From assembly GCA_973895155.1 (NCBI GenBank), contig OZ316892.1:29704932-29768931 (forward strand): a stretch of DNA of 64,000 nt, read 5' to 3'. The stretch's first letter is position 1; each line of letters starts with the position of its first letter. The position numbers and the translations under genes were made by a program. Source of the stretch: Marsupella aquatica. Its lineage: Eukaryota; Plantae; Marchantiophyta. The notes beneath the pieces were generated by a model, which worked only from the letters and a program-made list of their open reading frames with translations, did not search any database and had not been told where the DNA came from. Positions 1 through 51,800 of this stretch are shown here, piece after piece.

Positions 1-188
1 CTATCGAGAATCAGTTCGAGAAAACTCAAATAAGCGTTAATTATATCATCGGTGAGCAACTCGCGCGGTCTCAGACACATCATATATTTCCTCTTGATCG
101 AGTGTTGTAAGAACTTGGTCAATAGCTCTTCCATATCCTTAGAAGGATCAAGGCATTGATCTATTCGACTAGCCAAATTTTCAAAAAA
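1..188 (-). pseudogene. Ulp1/peptidase C48-like exon (N-terminal part of catalytic domain)
   Basis: Manual translation FFENLASRIDQCLDPSKDMEELLTKFLQHSIKRKYMMCLRPRELLTDDIINAYLSFLELILD resembles the Ulp1 'L.P..WLND.IIN.Y..LL' motif. The catalytic triad would lie beyond the window start. Confidence 0.7.
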
Positions 189-1179
189 CTGCAAAAAATA
201 GAGATTTCAGTACGCCTTCAAATAACGTACTGAGGTTGTAGCCTAAGGGTTCTACCTCAGAAAACAGAAACAATAACAAATCAATAATAAAATAATGACG
301 TCTATAATAGAAACTTTAAGCTTATAGCTTGCAAATGACCTTTGGATTGGGTGGATCCGGCCTTTTCGTAGCTGATCTCTTGGGTGCCTCAATCGCAACA
401 ACATCCTTCAGCCCTCCTCGAGACCGCAGTGATCGCTCCACCGGACCAGTTTGCGAAGGTTAGAGCGATGAGGCAGGAAGACCTTCAAATGGTTGTGGCA
501 TTTGATTCAAATATTCCACAATCTGGGAATCCAATTCCAAAATATCCGGTGCCACAATTTCTGCGCGAGTGACCTCTGTAATATATCGGGGTCGAGACCA
601 CGAACCCGATCGCGTCAAGTCAGCTGTTAGTCTCTTAACGACTTGAGCCGAGTCTGGTGCCAAAGACGTTCTCAGGTCTTGCACTCGATTCTCGAAAAAG
701 CGAACATTATTGATGATTGTCTCCATTTTGGATGCAGTGGCAGTCTTCTCCTCGGTAATCAAAAGACCCTTCCAATATTGCAAAGTAAGAACTGTCTGGA
801 CTCGGAGCTGCTCTGGTGAATATTTATTCCAATCATCCAACGAGACCGTACTTAAGGGTGGATGGTTAAATTCAAACTCCGTGCGAAGAAAATAGTCTAA
901 TATTTTCTTCTTAACTGCAATTGAGGGTGAAGAAGGCTTCTTCAAATTCAGCCTTATTTTCGGTAGACGTTGTGCCTCAGGAATAAGCAAAAGATCCTTG
1001 GCCCTCTCGGCCTCCTTCCTCGCTGCCTCCAGTCTTGCGGAATTGACCTTTTTTGCCTCCAACTTCTTCGCCTCCACCCTCTCCGGTCTTGCGGTCTCGT
1101 CCGCCATCCTCTCGGCCAGCAGCCTCTCAGCCGCCACACTCTCCGCCTTGGCCCTATTTGCCTCTGTCACTAAAAGGAC

Positions 1180-1740
1180 TCTCGCAGCCTCCGCTTTCTC
1201 AGCCTGGGCTTTCTCAGCCTGGGCGTTCTTAGCCTCCGCTTTCTCAGCCTGGGCTTTCTCAGCCTGGGCTTTCTCAGCCTCCGCTTTCTCGGCCTCCGCT
1301 TTCTCCGCCTGGGCTTTCTCCGCAACCGCTTTCTCAGCCTGGGCTTTCTCAGCCTCCGCTTTCTCAGCCTGGGCTTTCTCAACCTCCGCTTTCTCCGCCT
1401 CCGCTTTCTCAGCCTCTGCTTTCTCAGCCTCGGCTTTCTTCTTCTTCTTCGCGGCAGTTGCTTTTCTAGCTACTGCCTTTTTCTTCTTAGCCTCCTTCTT
1501 TTGAAGCTCCTCTTGTCGGGATGCCTCCTCCTGCCGGGCCGCCTCCTTCTTTTGAAGCTTCTCTTGCCGGGCCGCCTCCTGCCGGGCCGCCTCCTCTCTG
1601 GCCTCCTCCTGCCGGGCCGCCTCCTTCTTTTGAAGCTCCTCTTGCCGGGCCGCCTCCTGCCGGGCCTCCTCCAGTCGGGCCTCCTCCTGCCGGGCCACCT
1701 CCTCTCTGGCCTCCTCCTGCCGGGCCGCCTCCTCTCGGTC
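1180..1740 (-). repeat. Coding tandem repeats: 15-bp unit (AEKAE/AEKAQ) array and EEAARQ-type array forming a charged helical linker
   Basis: Repeated gctttctcagcctcc/gctttctcagcctgg and gcctcctgccgggcc units inside ORF 460..1914. Confidence 0.9.
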
Positions 1741-2429
1741 CACCTCATGTTGAGGCTCCTGTGTGGCCTCTTCATCAGAGTCCTCAGCGTCCTCAGAACC
1801 CTCCATCTCCTCGTCCTCTTCATCAGCGTCCTCAGCGTCCTTCATCTCCTCTCCGTCACTCTCTTCATCTCCTCTATTGTCGGAATCTCCGACGTCGTTC
1901 TGCGTATTGGTCATCCACTCTGGATCTTGATCATTGACATCCCCATCCGCGTCACCTTCCGCGTCACCTTCCCCCTCACCATCCGCATTACCATTGCTCC
2001 CTGCATCCTCAACATTGAAGCCGCAGTCGACTTGATCTGAATAAAATCAGATCATTTGATAAGAATAACTCACGCGCATATTCGCGTGAAAAGAAATGTT
2101 ATGAATATCCACGCGCATGTTCGCGTGACGCAATAAAAAGTAAGAGGTTTCAAAAGTAACCTACTTTGGATTGGCCCACTAGGGTACTCCGTTGGTCGAA
2201 TGTACAATCGATCGGAATCTTCAGAGAGTGCATACTCTTGCAATAATTGATTACAAATATTATCAGGGATATGTTGTTCGTGGAGGACATCCAAAACATC
2301 AGCCCTGAGAGTAGTTACGGATGGACGGTACTTCATTAATTTATCTATACATTTTTCTATACTAGCCCGTACTGGGTCAATCAATGACAGCGTTGTATCA
2401 ATTGTCACCGTGGTGTGTTGCAAGAAACA

Positions 2430-3080
2430 AGACAACTCCCTATGCGTTGCCACAGGGCAATAATATTTTACATTGGATCCAGCATCCTGTAAAAAAAGCC
2501 AAAATTAGTTCACAATATTAATTGAGAATACAATAATCTAAATAATCTTAAAATCGAAACCCCAAAATATAAATCTCAAAACTTACCATTAAGCACTGGA
2601 TCAAGTTCGTTCCCTCACCGAAGCATATAGCCCATTCCCCACATTGGACGAATTGACTAACAATACTTTCAAAGAATGGAAGTATCTTTTCTGGGGAAGG
2701 TGTCGTGAACTCACCGCTCTCTTCAAAATTGGCTATCTTCTCAATCTGATATTTGGAGACCAATTGGAACTCGAGGGCTTGTGGATCGCCCATTGTGTTG
2801 AAGGCCAAGTTGTGAAAAGCGTAGGTTACAATAAGCTTCTTCTCCTTCGGCCGCTTCTGAATATAATGGCTATCGACAGCAACGTAGTGTGTGTACTTCC
2901 CTAATTCCCGTTTGATTAAGTAAGACTCAACTGGAGAGGCTACAATAATAACCACATGGTGTGGTTTTGCCCCTATCTCGCTAGTAGCACGAAATAACCC
3001 CTCATAGAATGAGCAATTTGGCGGACGCAAATTCCCATTGATGAGGGATCAAAATAAATCAAGCTTGCAAGGTTCTTGTC
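2430..3080 (-). pseudogene. Beta-class N6A/N4C DNA methyltransferase-like domain
   Basis: LASLIYFDPS then a 1-nt frameshift; restoring one base gives LIYFDPS(Y/F)NGNL, compare motif IV 'LIY.DPPYN'. Downstream EKILPFFESIVSQFVQCGEWAICFGEGTNLIQCLM|DAGSNVKYY parallels 'xKP..LL..LI......GD.VLDPF.GSGT...AA...GR..IG'. Motif order IV...X-I is the beta permutation. Motif I is degenerate. Confidence 0.55.
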
Positions 3081-3989
3081 TTCACGTATGATACAGTCTG
3101 CAAACCCAGCATTTTGTATATCCTTCAGGGATCGCAATTTCAGCCTCTCACCGACCGGCCGCACTAGTTGGTTTCCTTGACTATCAACTGATTTTTGTAT
3201 TCCTTCCACCAACTTGTAGAATATCGGGTCGATCTCCTTCAATAAATTATCATTACTAATATTTACATTTAAGCACTTCTTTAGATAACCACTCAACGCA
3301 TCTCTCAACTGCTTCCGCACCATCTTGTCGAGCTTAAAGCGATCAATCATTCCTTTGACCCGCAATTTCCGCGCTGAATCTGTTAGACTTTTCAGCTCCA
3401 TCCGGGTGGATGTATCCCCGTTGAGTTTACTCAATAATAAAATCTCAAACTCAACTTTTGTCTTCTTCTTTATGCAGAATTGCTCCAAACTCATGCTGGT
3501 CGTTGACAACACTGGAGCCTCAGAGGACTTCCTCGTCTTCCCAAATTTCACTTTGATGCTTCAGTTTTTGAGTATAGACAATCTTCCGCTCAACATATAT
3601 TCCGCTGCCTTTCGAAGAACCGAGTCTGAGCACCCTTGACAAGAACGAAACGTCTTCTTCAGAAGATGATAAGCACATGGATTATCCGCAATTTTGACGG
3701 CGTCCCTCTGTAAAATTCCGTTGTAAATTACAAGCTCTCCTGTCCTTGATAGTTCGTAGACCTCCATCCACTTCTTGAATGTTTCGTCCTCCATTGTAAA
3801 GAGAAACGGAGCCAATTCTCCAAATTTCATCATTTCGTTCTTCTCCATTTGAGCCCATGGGCAAACAAAACTTGTAGCTCTCATAAATACCTGAAAAACA
3901 ATGGAAACATGACAATTCTAAGCTTGACGCGACCGTTCGCGTGAAAAAAGTTTAAACGATAATGTGATCGAAGAGGGTTATTTATATAC

Positions 3990-4547
3990 CTCCCAATTTG
4001 GATGACGATAATGTGATCCAGGCCGCCCAAATGAGTTCCAGATATTACGACACTGTCGTACAATGGTAAGAAACTATCCTTCTTCCATTGATGTTTGATG
4101 ACAGTGGTTCAGAGCTTTCGATAATCCCATCAAATGAACATTATTGTCGTTGTTGAGCGTTGCCCAAAACATTACAACTTCTACAGTACCGCAAGCGTCT
4201 CGTACAACTTGGCTGACTTTATCGTCCTCTTTCAGCAATTTGTACGCCATTATTGTGTGCTGGCCTCCGAGTATCCAGAAATGACTGGTCATAATGTCCT
4301 CCTCCTTTGGCGATGAATCGTAGGGCACCCCATTGTAGTCGGGATCTCTGTTGGCCTCCAACTGAACCCACTTCACAGGGACTAAAAAGCAGCATCGCTT
4401 CTCGAACTTTATAGCCGAATGAGAGAGGAGTGAATTCTTTAGCCTATCTGTGTAATCCTGATTCCACTCTCGGCACTTGATGTGGTCCGGTGCAAGATGA
4501 CAATGTGATGTTTCAACCAAAAATGACTTGCTGTTTAATATATTCAC
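3990..4547 (-). pseudogene. ParB/Srx-like N-terminal domain
   Basis: CREWNQDYTDRLKNSLLSH...FWILGGQHTIMAYKLL...VEVVMFW...LSKALN resembles the ParB N-terminal pattern (R..d...v..L..Si ... iidGxHR..A ... v.v ... N). The arginine patch is degenerate (GGQHT). Confidence 0.55.
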
Positions 4548-5301
4548 AGCACTATATTCTTGAGGAAAGAATCGAACAGAGCCCCGACATTCGCTGAGGT
4601 AATTACTTTCGGAAGATTCTCCGCCGAGTATACTTCAACCTTGCTCACTGGCGGGGCCTTTCCTAAGCAAAATCCCTGGTTGAAAGGAACTCTCTGGAAC
4701 TCAAGTACGTCAATAATGTATTGACAAATCAAATCTCCCGTTGATCCCTCTGGATCGGAAGGATATCCCACACTAGTAACCTTTTCCAAGGCGTGCCTTG
4801 CACCTAGAAGATCATCGATTCTGGGCTGATTGAAGGTTACATATTGCGTTCGATCCAAATAAATGCTTATTTTGTCTTCCTGCTGGTCGTCGCTGACTAG
4901 CAGAACCAATCCCTCTGTACACTCTTTAACTTTCATGTTCTTCTCAAAGAAACACCCAAGAATTTTTTATCTCTCCAAAACTGTAGCTTTATCATTTTTG
5001 CCACCACAAGACGGATAGTCCCATTGCGAACGACTATTCCAAAATTGGATATCTCAGTCGATTCAAAGAGATGGATACTCTTTGTCTCCGTTGTTCTCTC
5101 TCTGATTGACTTTCCTCGATATGCAAGTATGGATGTCTCCACGGGAGTCATTTTTGTCTTGGTTTTCTTACGAGAAGCAGCTTTAGACAAGTCTCTTTTC
5201 CGCTTTGAGGTTCCGGTAGGATCCATTCTGAAACAGACAAATATTGAAAGTTAAACGTTTATTATAAAATACTAACACGCGCATGGTTGCGTCGTGCCAA
5301 A

Positions 5302-5835
5302 TTACATTTTAGGAATATTTATCCTGACCCAATCTTCTCGCTCTGAATCTTCATCTAACCAAAACCAAAGGTTCCTAAACGTGTCAAGTTCAGATCCTTC
5401 AAATCCACCCACAATGTCCAGCGGCGGGAGAGTTCTGATGGATTCTGTAAATCTTAATGCTACACTCCGTGAAGTCAAATGCCTTCGAAGCGATTCATAT
5501 CCTGGTCTATCAGTGAAGTCGTAAGCAACCAAGGTGACCGTCGCCCAAGTACTACTATAAGTAACTATGTGGCACCACTTCTTACTGACTGTTTGAATGG
5601 CGATCAAGTCCATGACCCAATTTTTAATCGTAGTATCCGACAAATTCCCAAGACAGTGGAAAAACTCTTTGACTAATGGCCAAATATATTTCTCGACAAT
5701 ATCGTCCAGAAGACCGGGTATTAGGTCTTTAGCTTGACTCCATATCATGTTTCGGTTGATAACCTTTGCACGTGCAATGCGCTCCATCATCATTTGACGA
5801 TGAGATTTTTGATTCATGTCAAAGGACTGCAGCAT
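5302..5835 (-). CDS. F-box-like protein 1 (split F-box), TE cargo
   Basis: LIPGLLDDIVEKYIWPLV ... IQTVSKKWCHIV; intronless and open; likely start is ATG 5817 after a putative acceptor. Confidence 0.65.
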   Translation of the reverse strand: MLQSFDMNQKSHRQMMMERIARAKVINRNMIWSQAKDLIPGLLDDIVEKYIWPLVKEFFHCLGNLSDTTIKNWVMDLIAIQTVSKKWCHIVTYSSTWATVTLVAYDFTDRPGYESLRRHLTSRSVALRFTESIRTLPPLDIVGGFEGSELDTFRNLWFWLDEDSEREDWVRINIPKM

Positions 5836-5869
5836 AATATGGAAACGATTAAGAACAAGAACCTATCCA

Positions 5870-6439
5870 TTAAGAACTGGGACCACCAAGATTCTGAGAA
5901 AATCTACCAAACCTTTCAATTAGGACATCTCGTTCTTCCTCATCTAAATTGTTATATTTGTTCGTAAACAATGCAATTTTGTCAGAAGTAGTAGTCCCAA
6001 GAACATATATTTTTGGAAGCATAGAAATATCCTGTCGAATAACTCGACAGACTGAGTCAAACTCCAACTCGTCAATTTTGGGTATGTCGTAAAGAGCATC
6101 ATTTGCGACATTGATAATCCGGTTTGCTTGTTTGAGGATAGCCCATAATCTTGTATTTGTAACTAAAAAGTTCCACTTCTTGCTATAAGCTCCAAGCCGA
6201 ATAAGGTCTCGGACCCTATTGATAACCAAATTGTTATCGAGGTGTCGATATCCACGCAATCTTTCAATTAAAATAAAGTGTTCGTAGAGTATTGGCCAAA
6301 TGTTTGAAATGACCAAAATATCTGGTATTCCTCCAATGAGACTAGAGGAGGATTTATCCAGTGTATCTCATATTGTTTTTTGTTTCCTTTCATGAGATGA
6401 AAGTCCGAAATCTCGACCCTCATTCAAAAGTTGGCTCAT
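5870..6439 (-). pseudogene. F-box-like protein 2, TE cargo, one premature TGA
   Basis: ATG 6439 is in frame with ORF 5870..6316, with TGA at 6368-6370; LIGGIPDILVISNIWPIL ... LGAYSKKWNFLV. Confidence 0.6.
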
Positions 6440-6504
6440 CCTGCTTTTATCATATCACAAAACATTGTTAGAAGACATACGACGTGCTTGGTCACGTAAG
6501 TTAA

Positions 6505-7056
6505 CTAGAATTCCTTAAAAGCGTAGATGTCACCCTCAAGGTATCCAACTTCGTGGCATCTGACTGTAAATTTCCATTTTTCAAGAGGGTGAAGAGCATC
6601 GTAAGTCTTCGTGAAGAGTTCCCTAAGATCTCTGGACATTGACCCCATGAATTTAATTCTTGTGTATCTCTGGAAGAAATTTTGAACTGTCGATGAGAGA
6701 GACTCATTTCTGATCGGTTTAGTAGGATTTCGTGGGAAAGCCAAATCTAATAAACTCAACTTGATTACACCCAGAAGATAGGTATTCCCAACAAGGTGGC
6801 GCCATCTGCGACACACCGAAGATAGTCCTACAAACTCATCCAATTCCTTTATTGAGAAATTTCCTGCATTAGCCGAGGAATTAAAAGTCTCCTTGATCCG
6901 AGGCCATATCAATTCCGCGACAATGAAATCTGGAAGTCCAGGTAGTAGTGTTTCAACAAATACAGAATATCCCGCCAGTAGACCATCTTGGCTTCTATCC
7001 AAAACGTCAAATATTGGGCATAGATATCTGAAGCTCTCCAGACCAGGTTTGCCCAT
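6505..7056 (-). CDS. F-box-like protein 3 (split F-box), TE cargo
   Basis: LLPGLPDFIVAELIWPRI ... LSSVCRRWRHLV; intronless open 183-aa ORF. Confidence 0.7.
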   Translation of the reverse strand: MGKPGLESFRYLCPIFDVLDRSQDGLLAGYSVFVETLLPGLPDFIVAELIWPRIKETFNSSANAGNFSIKELDEFVGLSSVCRRWRHLVGNTYLLGVIKLSLLDLAFPRNPTKPIRNESLSSTVQNFFQRYTRIKFMGSMSRDLRELFTKTYDALHPLEKWKFTVRCHEVGYLEGDIYAFKEF

Positions 7057-7194
7057 GACTCTTTTCAGCCAAATGATATATCCCAGAGATTATTTTCACG
7101 CGACTGGTCGCGTCTACAAATCAGAATGTATAAACAATTCTTTGAGAGACTGATTTTTTTGGGTCACAACGTGACAAATCATAAATGTTGCTTC

Positions 7195-7835
7195 GTCCTC
7201 TAACAGAACTAGTCAATGAGAGAGCTACCTCAAACGCGACTGGTCGCGTCAACTGATCCTAAAAGGAACCTTACCTCCTCTAACAGAACCAATCAATGAG
7301 AGCTACCTCAGACGCGACTGGTCGCGTCAACTACTCCTAAATGAAACCTTACCTCCTCTAACAGAACCAGTCAATGAGAGATCTACCTCAGACGCGACTA
7401 GTCGCGTCAACTGGTCCTAAAAGGAACCTTACCTCCTCTAACAGAACCAGTCAATGAGAGAGCTACCTCAGACGCGATTGGTCACGTCAACTGAACCTAA
7501 ACAACTATATCCACTGAACCTTCCCTGTGGAGATTTGGATATGGTACGCGCTCAGTAAATCTATCATGTTTCCTTCTGACACGCGACCGGTCGCGTCAAC
7601 TGGTCCTAAAAGGAACCTTACCTCCTCTAACAGAACCAGTCAATGAGAGAGCTACCTGACGCGACTGGTCGCGTCAACTGAACCTAAACAACTATATCCA
7701 CTGAACCTTCCTTGTGGAGATTTGGATATGGTATGCGCTTAGTAAATCTATCCAGTTTCCTTCTCACACGCGACTGGTCGCGTCAACTAGTCCTAAAAGG
7801 AACCTCACAATATTTTCACGCGACTGGTCGCGGCA
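7195..7835. repeat. Tandem array of ~79-bp units (plus two longer variant units), each with the GACGCGACTGGTCGCGTC palindrome
   Basis: Unit cctcctctaacagaaccagtcaatgagagagctacctcagacgcgactggtcgcgtcaactggtcctaaaaggaacctta; palindromes at 7233, 7311, 7391, 7471, 7580, 7658, 7767, 7817. Confidence 0.92.
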
Positions 7836-8917
7836 ACAGCTCAAACAAATTTTGGACAATAGGATAATACAATGATACAACTGTGATTACTGACCCGTAC
7901 GGACAAGGAAATCCGAGTAAGCATGATTTCATTCATTTGTATTCATTCATGAACTTTACAATAATTCAGATGTTTGAGCTCTGTCATTGTGAAACTATTA
8001 TATATCATAAGTTTAGAGAATGATCCAGCTAAGATGATTCAATTTAGCAGTCTACTGGTTGTATTCGTCAATTAAAGGATTCAGTGTAATGAGATTCACA
8101 TAACATGAGAGTTTATATGATTAAATTCACAGCGTGCAAGTTTGTAATGACTTACTTAAGACGATTCAGGTTGTATTTTAATTAGTGAGTTTGTATGATT
8201 AACACATATTTGAGTTTCCAAACAAACCGCATTATGAAAACTCAGCTTAACAATCAAGAGAAATTTTAGCAAACCACAATCAACACCAGCAGAAAATGTA
8301 GAAATTGCACCTGAATTCTAAAAAATTGATGTAATCGTCTGAGAGATTGACGTCCAAGCACTTGAAGACCTTGCTGCGGCATTCCAGAAAGTAAATATAA
8401 GATTGAAGATATTAATATGCTAAGCAACAACAACACAGCTTCTATACTTCTATACATAGAGCTTCGCTGCCACCAATTGAATAACATGTGCTTAATGCTA
8501 AGGAACTCATTATGTCGAGTTAAAAAGACTCTTTCAGAAGTACAATCAAAGCTGTGGATAGGCAAACTGAGCATGAATAAAAGCGCACTAAACTTGAAGA
8601 TTCAAAGAGGTGAAACAAACCTGAATGCTGAATGGAAGGAGCTGAAACAAGCTGCCAAAAAGTAGTTCGAGCTGCTGAAACACGTTGATCGAGCTGATAT
8701 GAGCTTAAAATTGGCTGACACGAGCTAATACAAGCACTCCCAAAAAACTAGCTGCAATGAACTAGCAAACTAGAAGTGAATACGAGCTGTAAATGCGAGC
8801 TGTAACGCACCAACGAGCTCCTGGTCGAAATGATCAACAACTACTAAGAGTTGCAATGCGCCGACAAGCACCTGACCACAACGAACGAGCTGCAACGACA
8901 AAAATGAAATCCAAGGC

Positions 8918-9130
8918 AGGAGCGAGAGCGAGAGCGAGAACGACGAGAGCGAGAGCGACGAGAGCGAGAGCGATGAGAGTGAGAGCGAGAGTGATGAGAG
9001 CGAGAGCGACGAGAGCAGGCGTGCGAAAGTCTAGGGAGCGAGAAACAACAACAATGAACAGTGAACTCGAGACCGTGGGCGCCGACACTAAGGAAGGACT
9101 AATTAGGGTATTGTTTTAGCATAACCCTAA
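8918..9130 (-). promoter_or_regulatory. Putative promoter/5' leader for the minus-strand cargo unit: (GAGAGC)n tract (CT-rich on minus strand) and telo-box-like motifs
   Basis: (gagagc/gacgagagc)n at 8920-9016; ttagggt at ~9103 and aaccctaa at ~9123. CT-rich 5' UTRs and telo-boxes are typical of plant promoters; function is inferred. Confidence 0.35.
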
Positions 9131-10439
9131 TAACAGCCTAGCGACAGAAAGGTTCCAGATGATCTCCGTACACTCCACCATCGACTGAACAAACTATGCA
9201 ATCGTGAAAAAAAGATTACCGGATTCCTTTTGATTTGCCGTACTAAAGGAGATTTCTATTTGATCGCCAATTTGCAATTTAAACTGGTAATTATGCAACT
9301 GCAAAAGATTGTTAGTGGGGACCCCCGGATCCGGATCCGTATCTTCACTATATCTGCCAATTCAAATCCAAAATGTAAACGAACGACAACTTTCTCACGA
9401 TCGTTCCATCACGTAGTGGAGGCGAACTTCAAAATCATTACATTTTGGTAGTGGAGACCGTCGGATCCGGATCCGTACTCCACTCTCTATCTTGCCAATT
9501 CAAACCCATACTCTAAACAACATAGAACGATTCTCACGGTCGGGGAGAACCGATATTCAAAATCAATCCTGTACAATGATTCTCACGACTGGAGACTCAA
9601 CCAATTTTCAAAATCAAAATCGAGTCCAGATGAACACATCCTCCATGGAGTCAATAGACTAATCTCATTGCTCACGGATCATTCTTCATTTTCAGTTTCT
9701 CCTGACCAGGATACTAGCTGGGCTCTCAGCGGAGGCTGATCCAAGGCACATTTGAGGTAGAGCAAATTGGATCATTCGACTATTCCAGTCGGAGGCGGAG
9801 CTCATTCAAGCAACGCTGGCGCAGTTCTTGTTGTATCACCTTCAATCTTGGGGAGAGCACATCCGATCAAGCGGGAGAGTTGCAACAAAGCGAGACGATA
9901 AACATTTAGAACCTCCATAGTCTGCCTCGTTCATCAAAGCATTCTAGTGGACCAAAAAAGAGCGGCTATTTTGAAATCACAGTCTGGTCGAGGATTTTGA
10001 TCTTGATACGATCAACAAGTTGTCATTCTCTGGTGGTGGGATTCGATCACGATACTCAAGGAAATTGGAGTTCAAAGAAGGAGGCTTAGTTGGCTGGGAC
10101 GAGGAGGCTACGCTGGAAGGAAGAGGCTTGGCTGAGAGGAGGGTTTCCGCCAACATCGGAGGGTTGCCGCCAACATTGCTGAGACCACACGCAACTGAAT
10201 AACTTGTAAGTATCAATCAGCATTAATTCCGCAATAAATGAGGAGAGTAGTTGCCTTAAATCACGCATTCAATGCATGAATTGAGTCAATGAAGTTATGG
10301 TCCAATTTCTCACTCTGATTTTGATCAATCCATGTTTCAAGTCCAATACAGAAGCAATGTATCAGAAGTACTAGTAGAGGATCCGAATGAATTCTCTAGT
10401 CTAAAATTGTATGGCGTTCAAGTATAGTTATCCGTACGT

Positions 10440-11660
10440 TTTGCTATTGTTTATTGTAGTCGACGGCCTAGCAAAACAAAATATAATCGAGGTCCATTTT
10501 TCAGATCAAACTGATCTCAACTTGTTAGTAGGATGACCTGATTTTTTGGATACACATGTAGTTCATCACGCGCACAGTCGCGTGAACCAATTTATCTCGT
10601 GTCTTTTGATATTGTTTATTGTAGTCAACAGCCTAGCAAATTCTCCAGCAATCTATTTTAAAACCAACGTCTTTGTTTCATCACGCGCACGGTCGCGTTA
10701 ATATTTTAGAGGTCAGCGAAAGCTTTGCACTCTTACACGTAATCGCCCTTTATTTCTCAGATCCTCCTGATCTCAACTTGTTAGTAGGATGACCTGTTTT
10801 TTGGTTACACATGTAGTTTGTCACGCGCACAGTCGCGTGAACCAATTTATCTCGTATCTTTTGATATTGTTTATTGTAGTCGACAGCCTAGCGAATTGGC
10901 CAGCAATCTATTTTAAAACCAACGTCTTTGTTTCATCACGCGCACGGTCGCGTTAATGTTTTAGAGGTCAGCGAAAGCTTTGCACTTTTAGACGTAATCG
11001 CCCTTTATTTCTCAGATCTTCCTGATCTCAACTTGTTAGTAGGATGACCTGTTTTTTGGTTACACATGTAGTTTATCACGCGCACAGTCGCGTGAACCAA
11101 TTTATCTCGTGTCTTTTGATATTGTTTATTGTAGTTGACAGCCTATCGAATTGGCCAGCAATCTATTTTGAAACCGAGTTCTGTGTTTCATCACGCGACC
11201 GGTCGCATTAATGTTTTAGAGGTTAGCGAAAGCTCTGCACTCTTAGACGTAATCGCCCTTTATTTCTCAGATCTTCCTGATCTCAACTTGTTAGTAGGAT
11301 GACCTGTTTTTTTGGTTACACATGTAGTTCATCACGCGCACAGTCGCATGAACCAATTTATCTTGATATTGTTTATTGTAGTCGACTGCCTAGCGAATTG
11401 GCCAGAAATATATTTTAAAACCGAGGTCTTCGTTTCATCACGCGCCCGGTCGCGTTAATATTTTAGAGGTCAGCGAAAGCTCTGCACTCTTAGACGTAAT
11501 CGCCCTTTATTTCTCAGATCTGTCTGATCTCAACTTGTTAGTAGGATGATCTATTTTTGGTTACACATGTAGTTCATCACGCGCACAGTCGTGTGAACCA
11601 ATTTATCTCAAGTCTTTTTGATATTGTTTATTGTAGTCGACAGCCTAGCGAATTGTCAGT
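10440..11660. repeat. Tandem array of ~255-bp units (~4.8 copies), two CACGCG-N6-CGCGT palindromes per unit
   Basis: gatctcaacttgttagtaggatgac recurs at ~10513, 10769, 11024, 11279 and 11527. Confidence 0.93.
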
Positions 11661-11901
11661 GAGAGGAATCTCAATTTTTCCTTGATTGCAAAAATGGTTA
11701 CATCGATCCCGAAGGACTTCGAATGTGGAATCCATATCCACTAGCACTATCCAGGAATTTAACTGACCTGGTCTTTCGAACACTATTTTCCACGGGACGA
11801 AATTAAGCTACACACTATCTATAACAAGTTCTAACTTGAACTACTCTTGAATCTGTAGTTCTAATCTTTGACTACTCAAAATATTATTGACTTTGATCGA
11901 G

Positions 11902-12444
11902 TCAGTCATTCCAAGATGAAGGCATCCACTCATCGGTGTCTGGTGTGGATTCCCTTGAATCCAGAAATTCTTCCTTTGCCCAAGTCCTAACGTCCATAGA
12001 TTTTCTCGGCTTGCTCTTTCTGTAATACAAATCAGAATCTTCGTTCATCTCTAATTGCCTTTTCTTCGGTGCGTCCACTTTCTTGGCCTCCTTCTTGACT
12101 GTCTTAGCATCTGTTGCTGCTTCCCCCGAAATGGATTGGACGCATGCTCTGGCCTTCAACTTCTCCCCCCTCAAAACGGATTCCATGAGGGCTTTGCCCT
12201 TTAACTTCTCCCTTGATGCCATCTTTGTAGTCATCTCTGTCGGATTGGTCTCCATCTAATCTTCCATCGACAAATGTGGCGAACAATATCGTCTCTCACA
12301 AAACATTTGACCCAATTTAGTCACCGTAAACATTATATTACATCGCTGACACATTCTGTAAGGATTACCATGAATTCGATACGTCGAACCTTCTGAATCG
12401 TCCGTCGGACCATCCTCATTCTTTGAGCTCAGCGGAGTAGTCAT
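11902..12444 (-). pseudogene. Small cargo gene with Cys-rich (CxxC...Cx4C) putative Zn finger and basic/acidic tail; one in-frame TAG
   Basis: ORFs 12256..12444 and 11902..12255 abut in the same frame (TAG ATG); YRMCQRCNIMF...FCERRYC. Confidence 0.45.
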
Positions 12445-12921
12445 CGCCCTTCAAACAAGAGATGCGGACCGAGACTAAGAATTGGAAATGAGAGAGCTGA
12501 TGTGCGAATAGATTATCCAATAGCCAAAAAGTGGAATGCGTGGGGGAATGAGCAATAGGGATCATCTCAATGCTTTATACTGTTTAGTCTCCACTAGTCA
12601 TTGTCCATAGTGGTTTCTAGAAGAGAGTGCGCATTTGACTGGCGCGTATTAGAATTGGCGGGAAGTTCAGTTGTCCTCTAATTATGGCTTTAATTTCACG
12701 TTTGGCGACCGCCCCGGGAATACTGATTGCTAGTGAACTACTGAGATTTCTTATGAGGGTCAGTAGTTACTGACTGTCCGGTGTCCACTCATTGGTAAAC
12801 TGGTACTGTCCACTCATTTTTTCTGAGTGGAGTTGAAATGATTGTTCGTAATTGATTGTAGTCGTTCTCATTCACTTGAAATGACTGACAGACCATGCAT
12901 AATCTGTTACCGGTATGTGTG

Positions 12922-13230
12922 ATGCCTTTAGATCCGTAATTGTATCTTCCTATCTTGCGCGCAATCGTATCTTACTTATGAAGTACCAAGTATGAGCTAG
13001 AGTTTGGGCCTAGCCTTCTAGCTTCTACATCGTAGACCCTGTTATCCCTACACCCTCTGACTAAGGTCACGCGACATGCCTTTAGATCCGTAATTGTATC
13101 TTCCTGTCTCACGCGCAATCGTATCTTACTTATGAAGTACCAAGTACGAGCTAGAGTTTGGGCCTAGCCTTCTAGCTTCTACGTTGTAGACCCTGTTATC
13201 CCTACACCCTCTGACTAAGGTCACGCGACT
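12922..13230. repeat. 154-bp direct tandem duplication upstream of the transposase, flanked by a second dispersed duplicate (~12765-12920 vs ~13345-13470)
   Basis: atgcctttagatccgtaattgtatcttcc at 12922 and 13076. Confidence 0.88.
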
Positions 13231-13625
13231 AGTCGCATGCAGGGCAGTGCATTGACTATATTCTGCCTACTTATTGACGGTCGTGACAGGACAATGCAGT
13301 TCACGGACATTTTACTGGCGCTTATTAGCACTACTGTCCTCAGCAGTTACTGACTGTCCACTCATTTGTTCTGAGTGGATGTGAAATGATTGATCGTAAT
13401 CGATTGTGGTCATTCTCATTCATTTGAAATGACTGACGGACCATGCATAGTCTGTTGCCGGTATGTGGTACCTCTAGGGTCACGCGACCAGTCGCGTGCA
13501 ACGCAATGCATTGACTACATTCTGCTTATTGACCGACGTGACAGGACAGTGCAATGAAATTGACGGACGTGACAGGACTGTACGCTTACAGTGATATTCT
13601 CTGATGTGCAGGATCATAATTATTA

Positions 13626-16600
13626 TGGTGACATCGATAGTATGGATCAGGGAAGGTGGACAAGTTATTATAGGCATACGTGAGAAACAGGTTGGAAAAG
13701 GTCGCGTGATAAGTCTTGATCCTTCCAGGGTTTGTCACAATGTTCCTCTTGGGGCGGACAGAGTTCTTCTTCTATTGGAGGAAGTTTTTGACGAGACCAT
13801 TCTATGCGAAGATGGCAAACTTTTGAAGGACATGATTGGGGGTTACCTTGTATGGGAAAGGAATCAGCTTTTTTGAGCTCCCATAGAATCGGAGGATGTG
13901 TTTGGCACTGTTGGTGATGATCAAGATCCAGTCAATCAAAATTCTGATGGGAACAACCATAATGAGAGTCGGTCTGGTGTGGAAGTAGTTTTACCAAAGG
14001 CCTTGTGGATGGGCATGCCTGTAAAGGTGGTGGATGAGAACAAGTTGATTTTTGCAGTGGCAACTATACATGTTCTAGATCCTATAGTGAAGCTTGGGGA
14101 TATATGTCACCATTGGGAATACACATGTGGGAATTCTGATCAACAATTTTGTCAAGGGAGCTACCATAGATCATCTGAAGCATAGAGATTGCTTAAAAGC
14201 TTGGTCGATGGACCAACTCATTGCCAAGGATGGCAACTTGTTGTCTTTCCACAACATCAGGCAAGCTGTGGGAGGGAACACATCTCCAACAAGTGGCAAG
14301 CGGTCTTACGTCCATAAAAGTAGGAAAGAAAGAGTCCATCTTCCCAGACATCTAGAAGAGACACATCTTTGGCACGTCAAGATGTGTTGTTGATAAACAC
14401 TAAGGACTGTTGTAGTGAACATTGTTGCCAATATTTGGACCGCAACTTGGCTATGGCAATTAGGCAAAAGTGGTGGTCAAAATCTTTTGCGGAGCGCAAG
14501 GAGGAGGAAATCAAGGCTATTAAAAATACAATACACTTGGGTACTGGAGAAAGGATTCTAGCAGTGGAAGGCAAAGTATTGTGCTTGGAGGCATGGAGAA
14601 TCATTCATTCAAGAGGAAAGACTCAATTTTATGCCTTGAAGAAGACTGTGATGGCTGGAATGAACATAGGTACCCATGGTAATGCTGGAAAAGGCGTATG
14701 TCCGAGAAAGTATCTCAAGCATTCATGTCAATGAAAGAGATTATTGAGGAGGCAGCTGATCATCATCCAGCCAAGTTGCATGAGAACCATGGCAGATAAT
14801 ACAAGGATGGTTTTGAGGGAATTGCCAACAAATCTTACTTGGGAGAATATTAGAAATAGGGTTAATATTGTCAACCAGGAGGCTGGTCTTCCTCCAATTT
14901 CCCAACCCACCTTGAGTCATCTACATCAGATGTATTTCAGGGAGTTCTCACGTCACAAAAAGGGCAACAACTTTTCAAAGTGTACAACTTGTAGTGAGTT
15001 GCTTCAACAAAAAGCAAACCTTACAGGAGCTAAGGAAGAGTTAGAGGGCCTAAGGCGTGACGAGGAGGAACATCACCAAGACCACACACAGCAAAGAATG
15101 TGCTATCATACTTGGAGATATGAGTCCATCCATCGTCCAAAGGAAGTGTTATGCCTTATTCATGATAAGATGGATCATTCAAAGACAGCTCTCCCAAGAA
15201 TGCCCTTCAATCCTAAGCATGTGGATGGTGCCCAAAAGTTCCCAATTACTGTCACTGGTATCCTTACTCATGGTCATGGTCCCAAGGCCATAGCCCAATA
15301 TCATGTTGGAGTGTGGCCAGGTGATGTCAACATCACTATTGGGTCAATTGATTCAATACTAAGGATGTTGGAAAACCCAAATCCAATGATCAAATCACTT
15401 GTGGAGGGGCCAGACTCGACAAGTCTTTTTAAAGACCTCCTTTTTGGGAGAGCAGATATCTTGGAGGCAAGTGTCCTTAGAGCATTTGAGGATGACATTG
15501 CCTACATCTCAAGCCTAGGTACTTTACTCACAATCCTTTAATTTATTATTATTTAATAATATAAGCTCACACACACTGACACTCTACTTTGTGTAGTTGT
15601 TGCTCCTCCTAGCCAAGGTTTCATTAATAGGGTTTAAACCCTAAACCCTAAATTGGGGTTTAGGGTCTGACTAGGGTTTTATTTAAAAGCATTCTGAGAT
15701 TGTTACATTGTGATGCAACACCTGAGGCACCAAAGTTCAGGCCCCTTCCACGAGTATTGAAGCTACAACTGGATAATTGTGCCTCAGACAACAAGAACAG
15801 ATATATGATGGCTTATTTGTCATTGTTGACGGCAAGGGAAGTGTTTGAAGAGGTTCATCTTGGTTTTATGGTGGTTGGGCATACTCATGAGGACGTTGAC
15901 GGTATGTTCGGGCATTTTTCAGAGTCTATGATGCATAACCCCACATACTCATTGCCTGAGTTAATGTCCTTGTTCATGAGAGCAAGGACACCCAATGCAG
16001 TCCCACATTTTCTATAGGAGGTCCCAGATTTCAAAAACTACTTAGCTCCATTCATGTTGAAGGGCCCTGAGGCATTGGTGGGGCATTTAAAACCCAGACT
16101 GTTTAGGTTCTATGTTCGTCATGATAGTATGCCATGCTTCCAATACAAAATGAAGTCAACTGATTAGGGATGGTTACCCAAGGAAGGTATTGAAATGTGG
16201 TCATGGAAAGATGACAAAAGTCCTCACATCCCAATTGGGGTGCCCAAACGGCTACCAATGATGGAGTTGAAAATGCTTCCTGAAGTGCTGACAGGGTTGA
16301 AGAAGCATGTGTCATTCTTTGAGTTTATTCTAAAGCGAACAAAAGAGGAAGAACCAAAGCGACGTTGGACAACTATCATCAATTATTGGAATGACATTGT
16401 AGATACTCTACAGGGTGAGCAGGTGCAATATGAACCTGAAGGTGCACACAACTTGGAATACGGGTTTTGGCCTTTATCAATATGGAGAGAGCACGTTCCA
16501 CCAGAATATCGAAATGTGGCATGTGAGTTGGAGGCAACAGTGGATTATGTGGGACCAGCAAAAGATAAACCTCCTGAGAGTTTTAACCCTAGGGTTGATG

Positions 16601-17015
16601 TTGTGAAGGGCTGTTATGTGTTGGTACGGCCGGACGACTCAGACCTGATGTTTATCCCGTCCATATGGGGTTAGTTGTTACAGATGTGGTAGAAGGACCA
16701 GTGAATGAACAAAACCTTCTTACTCATGTATGTGGCGTTGAGTGGTTTAGACCATTTATGGCAAAGAAGCAATGTGGTCAATCAGATTGGCAGCCAAGAG
16801 AGCGGTGGGCAGATTCTTGGGATAAGAAATGAGAACGTGATCCAACTCCAATATACAAGGAAGCTGAGACAATAGATGTTTCCTCTGCCTTGTGGTGTTT
16901 CAAAGCACGCCAAGGACCAGTGACAGGGCTGGTAGGAATTCCAAAGAATGTTGTTGTCAAGGCAAGAGACTATCTCTTGACATGCATAGCAAGTGACAAA
17001 TCCTAGACAGTAATG
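13626..17015 (+). pseudogene. DUF7869-type / Sola-like DDD transposase with N-terminal Tnp1/En-Spm-like (DUF8039-like) domains
   Basis: Core motifs LIHDKMDHSK, LQLDNCASDNKNRYMMAYLSLL and FMVVGHTHEDVDGMF; FSKCTTC...H...H Zn motif; CCSEHCC and LCLEAW; N-terminal VGKGRVISLDP..CHNVPLG...GGYLVW. Several frameshifts and in-frame stops (13874 TGA, 16015 TAG). Intron region ~15519-15717. Confidence 0.8.
15628..15680. repeat. Short telomere-like TTTAGGG/CCCTAAA cluster in both orientations inside a transposase intron
   Basis: tagggtttaaaccctaaaccctaaattggggtttagggtctgactagggtttt. Confidence 0.75.
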
Positions 17016-17097
17016 AAGCATGTAGTTTAGCATACAGTTTAAAAGGCAACTCAGAATAGTAGTAGGCAGAGAACTCAAGTTTAGACAAGTCTTATCG

Positions 17098-17556
17098 TTG
17101 GTTAGTTTATTTAAGATATAATATTAGTTAGTGGGGCCTTAGTTTGGTGATATTAAGGCATGATATTATTGACATTCAAATGAATGTCCAGTAGACATTG
17201 TAATATACAACAATCCTATTAATAAATAATAATTATAGTTACACCTTCAAGTGAACTCAACTTTCAATGATTTTCTGATTTTATATGGTTCCATGCCTGA
17301 TTGAGTCAAAGCAATAGAAACTAACTAATTAAAGGGTGATACTATGATTGTAGGTCACGCACCCTGGTGCGTGTCAATCTTTTTTTGCATTCAACCCTAT
17401 AGTAATTAAATAGACAAGTTAGTTAGTTGGTTAGTTTATTTAAGATATAATATTAGTTAGACAGTGGGGCCTTAGTTTGGTGATATTAAGGCATGATATT
17501 ATTGACATTCAAATGAATGTCCAGTAGACATTGTAATATACAACAATCCTATTAAT
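17098..17556. repeat. ~127-bp direct repeat pair downstream of the transposase
   Basis: ttggttagtttatttaagatataatattagtta...caacaatcctattaat at ~17098-17224 and ~17427-17556. Confidence 0.88.
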
Positions 17557-18072
17557 TGTTGTAAAGGGTGGTCAATCTTTTTTGTATTCAACCCTATAGT
17601 AATTAAATAGACAATTGAAACAATGAATGACAGTTTAATTAAGGATTTGTGCATGGATCAAGAGGTACTTGATGTCATTTAGTGATGCATTGTTATAAAG
17701 ATCTTGCAACAAAACATTTGAAGTTTTTGACTATCCCACCAAATGTTAAAGAGGTTGATCATTCATTAACTTATAATATTTAGATAAAATTGGAATTAAT
17801 CTAATACTTCAGTATTCCTTAAATTGGGGTTATAGGTTTCATTTTCGTTGAAGTCTCTCAATGATGCGTTTGCATCACCTCAATGTTTCTTACATTGAGA
17901 CTAAAATTTGTAATTAAGAAACTGACCTCTGGTTAAGAGACTGACCTCTGGACCAGTTTCTTACTCTTGACTCCATGGCTTTCCTCGAGAAAATCAAAGG
18001 TCAAAAGAGGAGACAACCATGATTGTGCTGGGAGCCCACCTTTAGGGGTGTATGTAACTGCACATCAAAATG

Positions 18073-18273
18073 TGACATATAGGGTGGCTGACCTCCCTCC
18101 ATCCTCCATAGCATGATAAACCCCTTTATTTTCTTTAAATCAATGAGTGCCCACCATATATTAACACATTTTGACATATAGGGTGTCTGACCTCCCTCCA
18201 TCCTCCATAGCATGATAAACCCCTTTATTTTCTTTAAATCAATGAGTGCCCACCATATATTAACACATTTTGA
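18073..18273. repeat. ~99-bp tandem duplication within a ~240-bp insertion in the RLK remnant
   Basis: tgacatatagggt...ttaacacattt occurs twice; flanks align with 38020-38045. Confidence 0.85.
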
Positions 18274-18374
18274 TGTGTGATTGACTCACGTTCATAACTA
18301 TGGAGCATGCGAGTATGGACCAATCTTCAAAGTGAAAAATTTGTTCCAAGTAAGAAGAATAGAAAATCAATATA

Positions 18375-20247
18375 CAGTGTCTAAGTGCAAGCTCCCTACA
18401 AGGCGCTCTCGGGAAGGCACTCCAAACTTGCACTTATCCACTTGATGTAATATGTGATAAGTGCAATGGGATATCCTTTATGCACTTGTCCAGATGTGCA
18501 TGTTGCACTGTAAAATAAGGGCATGTTTAAAGCTTACTCACTTCTTTGATGTGTTGTGAGGTCATACACATTGGATTCCTCATACCCCAAATTTTCATAT
18601 TGCACAATTCATCTGGATAAGTGCATGGATAAGTGCATGAAACTGCTGTATGTAATTATCCATTGCAGTTATTAAGGAATGCTTCTGGCTCATGCATTAT
18701 TGTAACTCATAGATGCATGATCATCGTTTAGATGAAAATGCACTTGCGTATTCGTCTTTTAGTGACACTCACATACAATGCATTTTTTTATTATTGGCTG
18801 AACAAAGTTCAGCAGTTGTGATGGGGCCAGAAACGCCCCATGATGTGTCTGTTTGCAATACTTGGGTACAATTCTTTGTCCACTTGACATGTACACTTGT
18901 TCTAACTAGGCCCTACAGTATTGTCATGATGGCTTATTGACGAGAGGAAAGTACTTTCCTGTTAGTATTTTCCAATGTAAAGTTCAGCTATTGTGACTAA
19001 ATCTCTTTGGTCAAGGCATGGTTTTAATTTTCAATTGTGACCTTGGAAGGCTGTCGTCTTTGTCTTTCCATTTAAAAAAATAATTTAGACCCAAATATAT
19101 GCATCTTTATGAAAATGTCATTGCAGAGTGTAGGACTCTAACACTACAGTAGGCTTTTCAATCCCAAGGGATAACCGCCACCACTCTGCCACACAATGAT
19201 GATGCGCATTATGTCCCTGATATTATATTACATTATAAGTATTTATGACCATGGCCTCTCTTTCTCAGTCTCCCTTGTTCACCATTCAAAACTTTATAAT
19301 CAATTGCATTACTTCATAATAAACGATTCTTAATAAGCTAAATATGATAACATTGTTCTGATAATAGGATGCCCTTACATTACCAAAGGGTCCTCTAACT
19401 AATTGAGTGAACATACTTATATATGGGCATGTGTAATAGAATATTAAATTCACTTCTAGGAGTGAGTCACATGTGTAGCATTTAATGGTGTCCTGTAATT
19501 TAGTGAACATTGACCTGAAATGGTTACAGCCAGTTCCCTATGCTGGAATTAAAAAACATTCTAACTGCCACTAGTTGCATTTGAACCCCACTTTTGGGGA
19601 AGGATATATGTTACAAGGCTTTGGGAAGGATGTGTGTTAAGGCTGCTGGTGGATGTGTGTTAAGTTTCAAGTGTCGCTGGAGAAGTCTGAACCCCACTTT
19701 TGGGGGGATGTGTTAAAAGGGATATGAAGCAAACAATATTTGTACCCAACACTTCTGTCACCCCACTCTCACTATCTACAACCAACCCAACCCATGGCCT
19801 GTTGTATGATGATGGTGGTAGTTTCCACTTATTTATCTTTGTTCTGTGGGTAGCAAACCTGCACCTATGGGGCTATGGGCAGCCACAACTCGCACAACGA
19901 ACTGCATTCTGTAATGCAGGGGGTCTCAAAATTAGGGCCAGGTCATCCTGCCACAGAATGACCCTCATGTCCGTGAGGGTGACTGCGGGCTCATTTCACA
20001 GGCTTGAAATTTTTTTGGTTTTAACTTTTTGACGCACTGGGATACCAGTGCTCTGCTCTCCTGTCAAAAAACCACAGGGTGGCATGTGTGCCCGTCAAAA
20101 AACCCCACGGTGATAGTGTGTAGACCTGCCCTGGGGGCTGCCGCACGCCTTTATGGCCAAGTCCGCCTGAACCTAACTCAGACTGCCCGGAAAGAAGCCA
20201 CTGCCTATATTTGAGTGCCGCAAACAATGAGTCAGGTGAGTCCCCTG
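18375..20247. mobile_element. Probable non-autonomous DNA-TE-derived insertion(s)
   Basis: Absent from the other module copies. The left part has multiple GGATAAGTGCA/TGCACTTATCC motifs in both orientations (18430-18640). CAGGGG...CCCCTG imperfect inverted ends at 19917/20247. No TSD found. Confidence 0.35.
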
Positions 20248-20462
20248 ACTTATAGAAGGAAATAAAATTGTTAGTGAGGGAACACTTTTGGAGGCAACGA
20301 AAAAGTTCTCCTCAGGCGTGACTTATAGAAGGAAATAAAATTGTTAGTGAGGGAACACTTTTGGAGGCAACGAAAAAGTTCTCCTCAGGCGTGACTTATA
20401 GAAGGAAATAAAATTTTTAGTGAGGGAACACTTTTGGAGGCAAAGAAAAAGTTCCCTGAGGC
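20246..20462. repeat. 73-bp tandem repeat x3
   Basis: tgacttatagaaggaaataaaa... starts at 20246, 20319 and 20392. Confidence 0.92.
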
Positions 20463-20909
20463 CGGTGCCGCGAAAATTACTAGAGGCCGCAAAAGAACCG
20501 GATCTTTCAGGCCAAATTATTACATTACGCTGAAGCGTAGAAGTCTGTGACAGTAGTAGAGTCGAAGGTGACGACGGCCTGCGCTCCTGGATATGGTGGC
20601 CCTCCTCAATCGGTTCATCGATCGTAATACCTGCTTCACAAATCGGCTGAGCCATAGCCATATTTCTGAAGAGTCCTCGGCCCACTTGGGCGGAAAAAGT
20701 TTGGAAGGTTTCGAGCTGATTTATAGCTGAGCGCCTCGTTCGTCGGGCCACATTCTGAAAAGGTTAGAGCTCGATCTCTCTGAGCTCTGTTACTTGGTAA
20801 CGTGTACGTCATTCATGGTTCTAGCTCAATCTGTTTATAAGCCCAGATCTGGGAGAGATTTTAATCCGTCCTCCTCACCACTATGTTTAGAGGTTTTCGG
20901 AGTTTAGGG

Positions 20910-20966
20910 TTCCTTTCCTTTCCTTTCCTTTCCTTTCCTTTCCTTTCCTGCCTTGCCTTGCCTTGC
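20910..20966. repeat. (CCTTT)n/(CCTTG)n microsatellite
   Basis: tcctttcctttcctttcctt...ccttgccttgcc. Confidence 0.9.
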
Positions 20967-21433
20967 CACTCCCTCTCCGGACTGCTCTGTTCTAGCTGAT
21001 TTTGGCGTTCCATTTGATTCAGAGCTTTTTTTTCGACCCTGCCCTCCACGACTTGGACAGGCAATCTAGCTTCCAAGCATCAAATGTCAATGCTTGCTTG
21101 TCGTTGCCGAGTAAGGGAATATGCTAGGCTGTGATGGGTTCAGCGAAGGCAGATCCGAGCATTAACATTTTAGATGGGCTTTTCAGGATTGAAACACAAA
21201 TCTTAAATGTCACTCAATCGACCTTTGATAGTACGGTGTGGTTATTGGTTTGAGAGGTTCTAAAGTCCGGAATTCACAAGCCAGGAATTTGGAGGAGAAA
21301 ACTACTACTAGTGATAATTGGGGATGAAACTGAATTTTTCTATTATTGGAGCCAGGATAGCGCAGACGAAACTCATAGCAATGCTATTACGATTGTTGGT
21401 AGTTGCAGTGGAATATTTGTGACCTTTACAAGC

Positions 21434-24400: not shown

Positions 24401-24987
24401 TACCCGACCACTTGACAGCACCAGTTCTGGACTGTTTCAGATTTGCGTACTTTCGCTAATAATGAATACAGTTCATCAAGGCCAGACTAGATTCACGGGG
24501 GTTTCCCCCAATATTACATATGTTCGTTCAGCTAGAGGTAGTCTATTGGCAATGCATGGAAAACATAAATTATGGAGACCTTAAAAGTTGTTGATTTGAT
24601 GGAACGGCTGCAACATTATTCATTTGATTTGGGCAGAAATTATTGGCTATGTACCTTTACAAGGAAAATTTGGTTCAGTTTCTAACATAGTTTACTTGAT
24701 TGTGTCTGTAGGTTAAAAAGAAGCAAAACGAGGGGTTATTGCTGGAGATCTTGCAACCCGAGTTGAGAGAGAACTGTGTAGGATCTGAAGTAGTGAGAGC
24801 CATGAATGTTGGTCTGTTATGTATACAAGAAGATCCAACAAGGCGCCCATCAATGTCTCAAGTAGTAAACATGCTCTTGGGAAATATGGATACAGTACAA
24901 GAGCATGAAAATGACCAATCTGATTGGGAAGACCCATCGACTGAAGGTAAGATTAAATATCGATGTGAACCCTCTCAATTCTCATGA
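21434..24987 (+). pseudogene. Receptor-like kinase cytoplasmic domain, copy 1 (LRR-VIII/malectin-type); DFG region deleted
   Basis: Exons [24 protein letters not shown]; [23 protein letters not shown]; [30 protein letters not shown]; GYIAPEY; [23 protein letters not shown] lacks the FGLAKS segment seen in the other copies. Confidence 0.88.
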
Positions 24988-40700: not shown

Positions 40701-40708
40701 GTTCAAGC

Positions 40709-46086: not shown

Positions 46087-46190
46087 GTGCGCTGAGAATC
46101 GTTGAAGTAGGCAGGCACTGTGATAACAGCCTTGGCCACCTTGTCGTTCAAAAATTTCGAAGCATCGTCGACGAGCTTCCTCAGCACCAG
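46087..46190 (-). pseudogene. ~100-bp fragment of plastid-type Hsp70/DnaK
   Basis: [34 protein letters not shown]. Confidence 0.9.
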
Positions 46191-51790: not shown

Positions 51791-51800
51791 CTGTTCAAGC

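Follow-up and report, generated by a model that had tools for sequence, protein, structure and literature searches.

Two described groups of transposons are among those closest to the locus reported here. According to PMC12477816, the Sola1-1_Ec32 element of Ectocarpus is 21.5 kb long, has the termini AACCG/CGGTT with a target site duplication (TSD) of 4 bp, and carries on the strand opposite to its transposase a gene with ParB-like and N4-methylcytosine/N6-methyladenine (4mC/6mA) methyltransferase domains. In the view of its authors the element would bind and modify itself, and they refer to proteins of this kind from green and red algae. VANC proteins of VANDAL transposons recognize short motifs within tandemly repeated non-coding DNA, where they reduce CG methylation (PMC5735166); some VANCs are reported to carry Ulp1 (PMC13317346). 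The window analyzed here is a stretch of 64,000 nucleotides from the liverwort Marsupella aquatica (assembly GCA_973895155.1, contig OZ316892.1, positions 29,704,932 to 29,768,931, forward strand). Its first part, 1..17831 (no strand assigned), is very probably one multi-copy transposon of more than 17 kb that carries cargo genes, a giant Sola1-like DNA transposon present as a decayed copy. Like Sola1-1_Ec32, as compared by description and not by sequence, it is a giant element with a ParB-like/methyltransferase-like gene on the minus strand and a transposase on the plus strand. The core design was therefore already known, since PMC12477816 describes Sola1 together with an opposite-strand ParB-methyltransferase gene, and the element in the window is likely a land-plant variant of the design reported in algae.

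The first-pass annotation of this DNA had taken the combination to be undescribed. That does not hold for the core design or for the idea of self-marking, both of which are in PMC12477816; it may hold for the land-plant combination, of which a title-level literature search found no version, although Bao 2009, Yuan and Wessler 2011, Sasaki 2022 and Petroll 2025 may describe related elements. The titles likewise yielded no degenerate active site, F-box cargo or CpG boundary of Sola1-type elements, and no liverwort elements of such type. The explanation put forward here, to which we give nearly even chances, is that a predicted non-catalytic ParB- and methyltransferase-like protein encoded by the element would bind the element's own palindromes and so limit CG methylation over the cargo and the promoter region.

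Palindromes and the CpG step

The palindrome ACGCG-N6-CGCGT was found in 24 copies at no more than one mismatch, all within 2072-13497 and none elsewhere in the window. It is exact in 17 copies; exact copies were absent beyond 17834 and from all of 300 Markov simulations. Among pairs of the form CGCG-Nk-CGCG (k 0-12), k was 6 in 18 of 19. By the gene model all 24 copies are non-coding and lie in introns, spacers or arrays. Within the window, the CpG-rich palindrome first annotated in the noncoding parts proved to be confined to the element. Array 1 (7098..7833) has 80/187-bp units and nine palindromes, including two at its edges, and array 2 (10496..11655) has 4.6 repeats of a 255-bp unit and nine palindromes. 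Copies are not independent, because 16 of them sit in these two tandem arrays. At least six solo palindromes occur in unrelated introns and spacers, with their own spacers varied and the half-sites kept. Four are located within 2072..5292, namely at 2072 and 2111 (intron 3), 3927 (intron 1) and 5277 (before the start codon) of the accessory gene described below. Two others, at 13223 and 13482, lie in the divergent spacer between cargo and transposase (12580..13620), which contains internal duplications and has palindromes on both of its sides. Counted from start to start, 10 bp separate the two CGCG half-sites, so the accessory protein would bind the 16-bp palindrome as a dimer.

The CpG content of the element changes abruptly, with the best change point at 13807 (range 13705..14069); CpG is retained leftward and depleted rightward. 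This point lies inside the transposase gene, about 310 bp beyond the last palindrome, and the drop is about threefold. With palindromes masked, the CG/GC counts were 486/549 in 1-13600 versus 47/144 in 13600-17834 (p 5e-9); the remainder of the window gave 1263/1981. For most segments of the cargo the masked observed/expected ratio (o/e) of CpG was about 0.75-1.0. It was 0.29 over the transposase and 0.17 at the 3' end, and the DNA outside the element had 0.61. The step persists at synonymous-type sites (NCG 64/348 versus 8/175; NNC|G 67/208 versus 11/110). Among the differences scored, the changes private to the window copy are mostly of C-to-T type, and its transitions fall preferentially at CG and CHG (16/25 in the cargo, 11/18 in the transposase), which indicates that the host does methylate DNA of the element. 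The cargo is old and intron-bearing, with relatives that are 28-60% identical, and recent import from an unmethylated donor is therefore unlikely as the cause of its CpG content. Under the proposed explanation it is binding, not methyl transfer, that would keep host CG methylation off, as VANC does for VANDAL; the divergent promoters would be kept usable, and the transposase body, which is without sites, would remain methylated.

Several observations count against such protection. Just 53 of several hundred differences were scored for substitution type. With the palindromes masked, little CpG is left in the array 1 spacers (o/e 0.21, 5 CG), so protection is not uniform. The 4-kb windows of the cargo (0.72-0.92) share their values with the upper part of the host range (0.36-0.79), and the CpG level of the cargo may just reflect gene-like chromatin. 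The last point belongs to a different explanation, in which the readers of the palindromes are the transposase or transcription factors of the host, CpG is kept through transcribed, gene-like chromatin, and the ParB-methyltransferase-like protein serves elsewhere, e.g. in transposition or copy inheritance. CGCG cores are sites of plant factors, which counts in favor of palindromes read by the host. Transposases can be sequence-specific activators of their own copies, as stated in bioRxiv 10.64898/2026.08.24.746577, and body methylation is described as low in bryophyte genes (PMC10952607). However, the palindromes are internal, not subterminal, with one copy at two mismatches within 4.3 kb of the right end, and the strict 6-bp spacing is missing from 46 kb of host DNA. 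The transposase gene needs transcription too, yet it is CpG-depleted. On balance this explanation appears unlikely.

The accessory protein

The large spliced accessory gene (1..5226, minus strand) starts at 5226, has at least five exons (approximately 5226-3990, 3890-2587, 2486-2165, 2036-340 and 188-<1) separated by GT-AG introns, comprises more than 1,500 codons and extends past the window edge. Homologue P0064, from Calypogeia fissa, covers the N-terminus and continues across intron 1, homologue P0002 covers exon 2, and the homologues are collinear across the breaks. The collinearity of P0064 and P0002 over exons 1-2 confirms a single protein. Calypogeia fissa is the only named source of relatives of the cargo gene (5 of the 11 clusters looked up are named from it or have named members), and it is among the cargo relatives at 28-60% identity. 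P0018 was rejected as a relative because the match is a chance one. P0001, P0002, P0004 and P0010 appear to stop where introns 1 and 2 of the window lie; comparison of the sequences suggests that the positions of the introns are conserved across the same identity range. A low-complexity region of acidic/charged helical repeats in 15-bp units (1095..1994, minus strand) was identified with Tandem Repeats Finder and by translation. Another helical region separates the ParB-like from the methyltransferase-like domain.

A ParB/DUF3723-like domain with the motif ILGGQHT is assigned to 3990..4560 (minus strand) with moderate support from the sequences. For homologue P0001, ESM Atlas gave DUF3723 at 0.96 and ParB_N at 0.91, with DUF3723 proteins as the nearest clusters. 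PHROG 1033 (ParB-like) matches P0064 weakly (E 0.13), and [IV]LGGQHT is conserved in the domain. Sequence-level searches gave no Pfam or PDB match to ParB; a tblastn search of P0064 against phages found no match, and one of P0001 against plasmids found one, at E 4. The ParB-like part of the first annotation thus stands on ESM Atlas, the weak PHROG match and the conserved motif, but not on Pfam or PDB.

The P0002 model and alignments place at 2587..3140 (minus strand) a domain that resembles beta-class amino-methyltransferases; its motifs are degenerate, with DPSS where DPPY would stand and CFGEG as motif I. The fold was read on the model of homologue P0002 (7 sequences; predicted local distance difference test score, pLDDT, 71), which is 45% identical to the window over the domain. 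Residues 242-452 of this model match beta-class amino-methyltransferases, with M1.HpyAVI as the best Foldseek match (E 1.4e-4) and CcrM as the best VIA match (Z 10.0); the top VIA matches are 11 DNA amino-methyltransferases. Phage methylases are among the named fold matches, which also include N4-cytosine enzymes. By way of this homologue, the model confirms the amino-methyltransferase-like part of the first annotation and gives it a beta-class fold. Fold search recovered this domain, while sequence-level and profile searches did not; its best ESM Atlas score was 0.81.

The catalytic motifs of the domain have been altered. The DPPY position (motif IV, [DNS]PP[YFW]) reads DPSS, DCSV, DSTL, DSTL, DGTI and YASI in six versions; the PP-aromatic part is missing in all of them and the Asp is retained in five. 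Motif I reads [CI]F[GS]EG in 4/4 versions, with Phe and Gly kept and the Asp-Pro of DPFxGxG lost. The domain is predicted, from the model and the alignments, to be non-catalytic, and the absence of the motif from 6/6 versions argues against 4mC/6mA writing. Of the self-marking or shielding first suggested, shielding or self-recognition is thus supported indirectly by the CpG step, whereas writing is not. That the accessory protein marks the element by actively writing 4mC or 6mA is highly improbable; in that case 4mC at CGCG would block 5-methylcytosine and spare CpG. An active writer would fit the clear beta-class fold, the N4-cytosine enzymes among its matches, the kept motif IV Asp and F-G-x-G loop, and the 4mC writers described from Marchantia (10.1101/2021.02.12.428880). 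It would not fit the replacement of PPY in every version, the differing residue before the motif I Phe in 4/4, or the failure of sequence profiles to find a methyltransferase, and DIRS1 transposons give a precedent for inactive methyltransferase domains (PMC4738411).

Binding without catalysis is itself weakened by several points. The structure model of the ParB-like domain is poor (pLDDT 40), below use for a fold search. The profile alignment that puts the motifs opposite those of E. coli YhdJ is non-significant (probability 0.23, E 0.26), yet, next to the fold match, it is what locates the motifs; the strict motif was matched in just 4/8 reference methyltransferases.

The last exon inside the window (1..188, minus strand) ends in LRPRELLTDDIINAYL, which may resemble an Ulp1 motif. 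About 20 residues of the putative Ulp1 domain lie within the window, and the 62-amino-acid exon has no Pfam or PDB match. The Ulp1 part of the annotated fusion protein is accordingly unconfirmed.

Extent, copies and decay of the element

The transposase pseudogene (13625..17006, plus strand, intron at approximately 15520-15720) was identified as DUF7869/Sola1-like by Pfam, alignment and tblastn. DUF7869 matches were obtained on the plus strand at 15664-16014 (E 9e-31) and 14735-15538 (E 5.7e-4). The gene contains three conserved acidic motifs (HDKMDH, QLDN and GHTHEDVD) and is collinear with full-length DUF7869 proteins, its relatives being 35% to 64% identical. DUF7869 is linked to Sola transposases; a search for DUF7869 in the literature found no paper. 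The cargo genes lie on the minus strand, and the divergent arrangement of transposase and cargo agrees with the first-pass annotation. In the transposase intron, 15620-15680 contains telomere-like AAACCCT repeats, including a 15-bp near copy of the right end of the element.

Contigs from four runs (3 organisms) were compared with the window, including 11660-21000, with the stretch 7190-11660 left out. Summed contig depth is high over 1760-7190 and 11660-17900 (runs X1, X2 and X4), and rises once more at 18054-18282. A contig of 313 bp (17805-18117) is of single-copy depth and shows zero differences in X1 and X2. Under the assumption of a 30-base overlap between contigs and repeats, the right terminus is at 17829-17834, with 17831 as the best estimate from the start of this junction contig; the annotated end was 17830. 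The terminus reads GGGGTT (to 17831) and is followed by the candidate 4-bp target site ATAG (17832-17835), together 17826..17835 on the plus strand. Sola1 elements are described as favoring AWWT target sites, and ATAG agrees at 3/4 positions; the left flank is outside the window. The placement at 17831 is based on the junction contig, on the CGGTT end and 4-bp TSD of Sola1-1_Ec32 and on the AWWT preference. The last 331 bp have no inverted partner anywhere in the window, so that the element probably continues to the left past base 1 and encloses the cargo.

Position 18282 was rejected as the right end, since the loose ends there come from a separate small repeat (approximately 18054-18282) and 17835-18087 is single-copy. 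This repeat has a 99-bp unit in two copies with short inverted arms, and is flanked by many distinct sequences (87, 113 and 55 contigs in three runs). It is probably a family like miniature inverted-repeat transposable elements, of which the window copy seems to be without its last few bases. Further to the right, a block of host DNA that holds kinase-like pieces and a U-box open reading frame (ORF) is repeated in tandem at 21200-28500, 40500-47700 and 51600-58100, with 92-100% identity over most of the three copies.

In run X1, depth was 19-24 for single-copy contigs, 402-492 for the main cargo contigs and 698-743 for the transposase contigs. These figures suggest roughly 20 cargo copies and 35 transposase copies, depth not being the same as copy number. 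Where the window has a frameshift, and at the majority of its stop codons, most other copies read differently; lesions of this kind lie near 3032, 4076 and 4559 in the cargo and near 13874, 14324, 14688, 14777, 16015, 16165, 16646 and 16832 in the transposase. The window copy is decayed, as first reported, and the family is more intact than this copy; it is young, with many close copies. A metagenome scan gave one locus from 186 candidate stretches, which was discarded as a long terminal repeat retrotransposon region with a weak match of 36 amino acids.

Cargo and transposase had been annotated as one element, and the evidence agrees: both are multi-copy in 4/4 runs, palindromes flank the spacer that separates them, and neither an inverted counterpart of the right end nor a left terminal repeat lies between transposase and cargo. 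What weighs against a single unit is that the transposase is about 1.5 times as abundant as the cargo by contig depth, a rough measure, so that the halves may have partly separate histories, and that no second copy joining cargo to transposase was seen, no contig spanning both halves in a comparison that left out 7190-11660. Both points would be expected if two units were adjacent or recently joined, one an ordinary Sola1 element low in CpG and the other a cargo repeat of its own, rich in CpG; the CpG step would then just mark their seam. X1 contig depth indeed rises from about 380-530 to about 590-740 around 13100-13500. Yet the CpG step lies inside the transposase coding region, off the depth step, and palindromes and a duplicated block are present on both sides of the latter. 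Both halves also occur in all 3 organisms compared, and Sola1-1_Ec32 is described with the same divergent layout. Two joined units are therefore considered improbable.

Further cargo and comparison with known systems

Three F-box-like ORFs are encoded on the minus strand: ORF 1 (6505..7056; Pfam F-box, E 0.015), ORF 2 (5870..6439, one internal stop; F-box-like, E 0.0071) and ORF 3 (5302..5817; F-box-like, E 0.054). All three match over the second half of the motif and align as mutual paralogues; the matches (E 0.007-0.06) are below the Pfam cut-off. Their top PDB match is SKP2 (E 0.79). The halves of the motif are about 20 residues further apart than is usual for F-boxes. Another small ORF (11902..12444, minus strand, one internal stop), found by translation, has a CxxC...CxxxxC motif and a basic tail and is multi-copy at cargo-like depth; it has no Pfam match and no family. 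The region 9130-9920 has frames with few stops (7 on the minus and 5 on the plus strand, versus 8-21 in others) and an internal repeat, and is possibly another decayed cargo gene on the minus strand, with no Pfam match. The CxxC ORF, this possible ORF and the CpG step were absent from the first-pass annotation.

A CAG acceptor is present 15 bases or less before 4/6 start codons (F-box 2, F-box 3, the large gene and the transposase), and the other two have weaker AG sites upstream. Acceptors placed just before start codons hint at one leader spliced to alternative ORFs. A (GAGCGA)n repeat at 8920-9016, CT-rich on the minus strand, is possibly the leader/start region for the F-box and large genes. 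The sequence TTGGCGGGAA at 12655-12664 in the divergent spacer is presumably E2F-like, and could tie expression to S phase.

The weakest step of the proposed mechanism is that proteins of the host's silencing machinery would be the targets of the F-box-like proteins and of the possible Ulp1 domain. A bolder form of the proposal, which we consider doubtful, is that the element represents a second, independently evolved sequence-specific anti-silencing system in land plants. In it a prokaryote-derived ParB and a dead methyltransferase would act on parS-like palindromes, about 14 kb would be shielded, the element would have its own F-box/deSUMOylase-like effectors, and the CpG step would be the evolutionary footprint. 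For the algal ParB-methyltransferase genes, self-binding and modification are proposed in PMC12477816, apparently without a target site or effect. The family in the window offers a candidate site, a predicted sharp methylation boundary and an altered mechanism, binding without catalysis. Because the site and the boundary come with many close copies, the idea of self-recognition becomes directly testable. If true, VANC-like anti-silencing has evolved twice by transposons in plants, from unrelated proteins.

Compared with Sola1-1_Ec32 as described, the element of the window has a similar right end, inferred as GGGTT and resembling CGGTT. It differs in that it is in a land plant and its accessory protein has more than 1,500 instead of 1,104 amino acids, with a degenerate catalytic motif, a repeat region and a possible Ulp1 part. 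It also differs in its three F-box-like genes, the CxxC ORF, the palindrome arrays and the CpG step; the string 'palindrom' has 0 occurrences in the main text of PMC12477816. DUF3723 is reported as a conserved cargo gene of the giant Starship transposons of fungi (10.1101/2021.12.13.472469), a likeness that comes here from ESM Atlas clusters and not from alignment; Starships differ in being tyrosine-recombinase elements of fungi. Zisupton/KDZ elements give a precedent for an F-box domain in a DNA transposon (PMC12062965), but with another transposase and with the F-box within a transposase isoform, not in three separate ORFs. CcrM, M1.HpyAVI, M.PvuII and Marchantia MpDN4MT1 share the fold of the accessory domain, but have DPPY or TSPPY; without these, the domain is closer to the inactive METTL14 subunit.

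VANDAL/VANC and the KAONASHI (KIU) Mutator-like elements (MULEs) of Arabidopsis, as described, have in common with the element a short motif particular to the element, which recurs in introns, in spacers and in tandem repeats, and an accessory protein with internal peptide repeats; local CG hypomethylation there corresponds to a CpG signature here. They have a MULE transposase, DUF1985/DUF287 proteins and a 9-bp asymmetric motif, whereas the element in the window has a DUF7869 transposase, a ParB/methyltransferase-like protein and a 16-bp palindrome, and Pfam found no MULE, DUF1985 or DUF287 match in its proteins. With a function shown for VANDAL and inferred here, the element works like VANDAL in the layout of its motif but is no member of that group.

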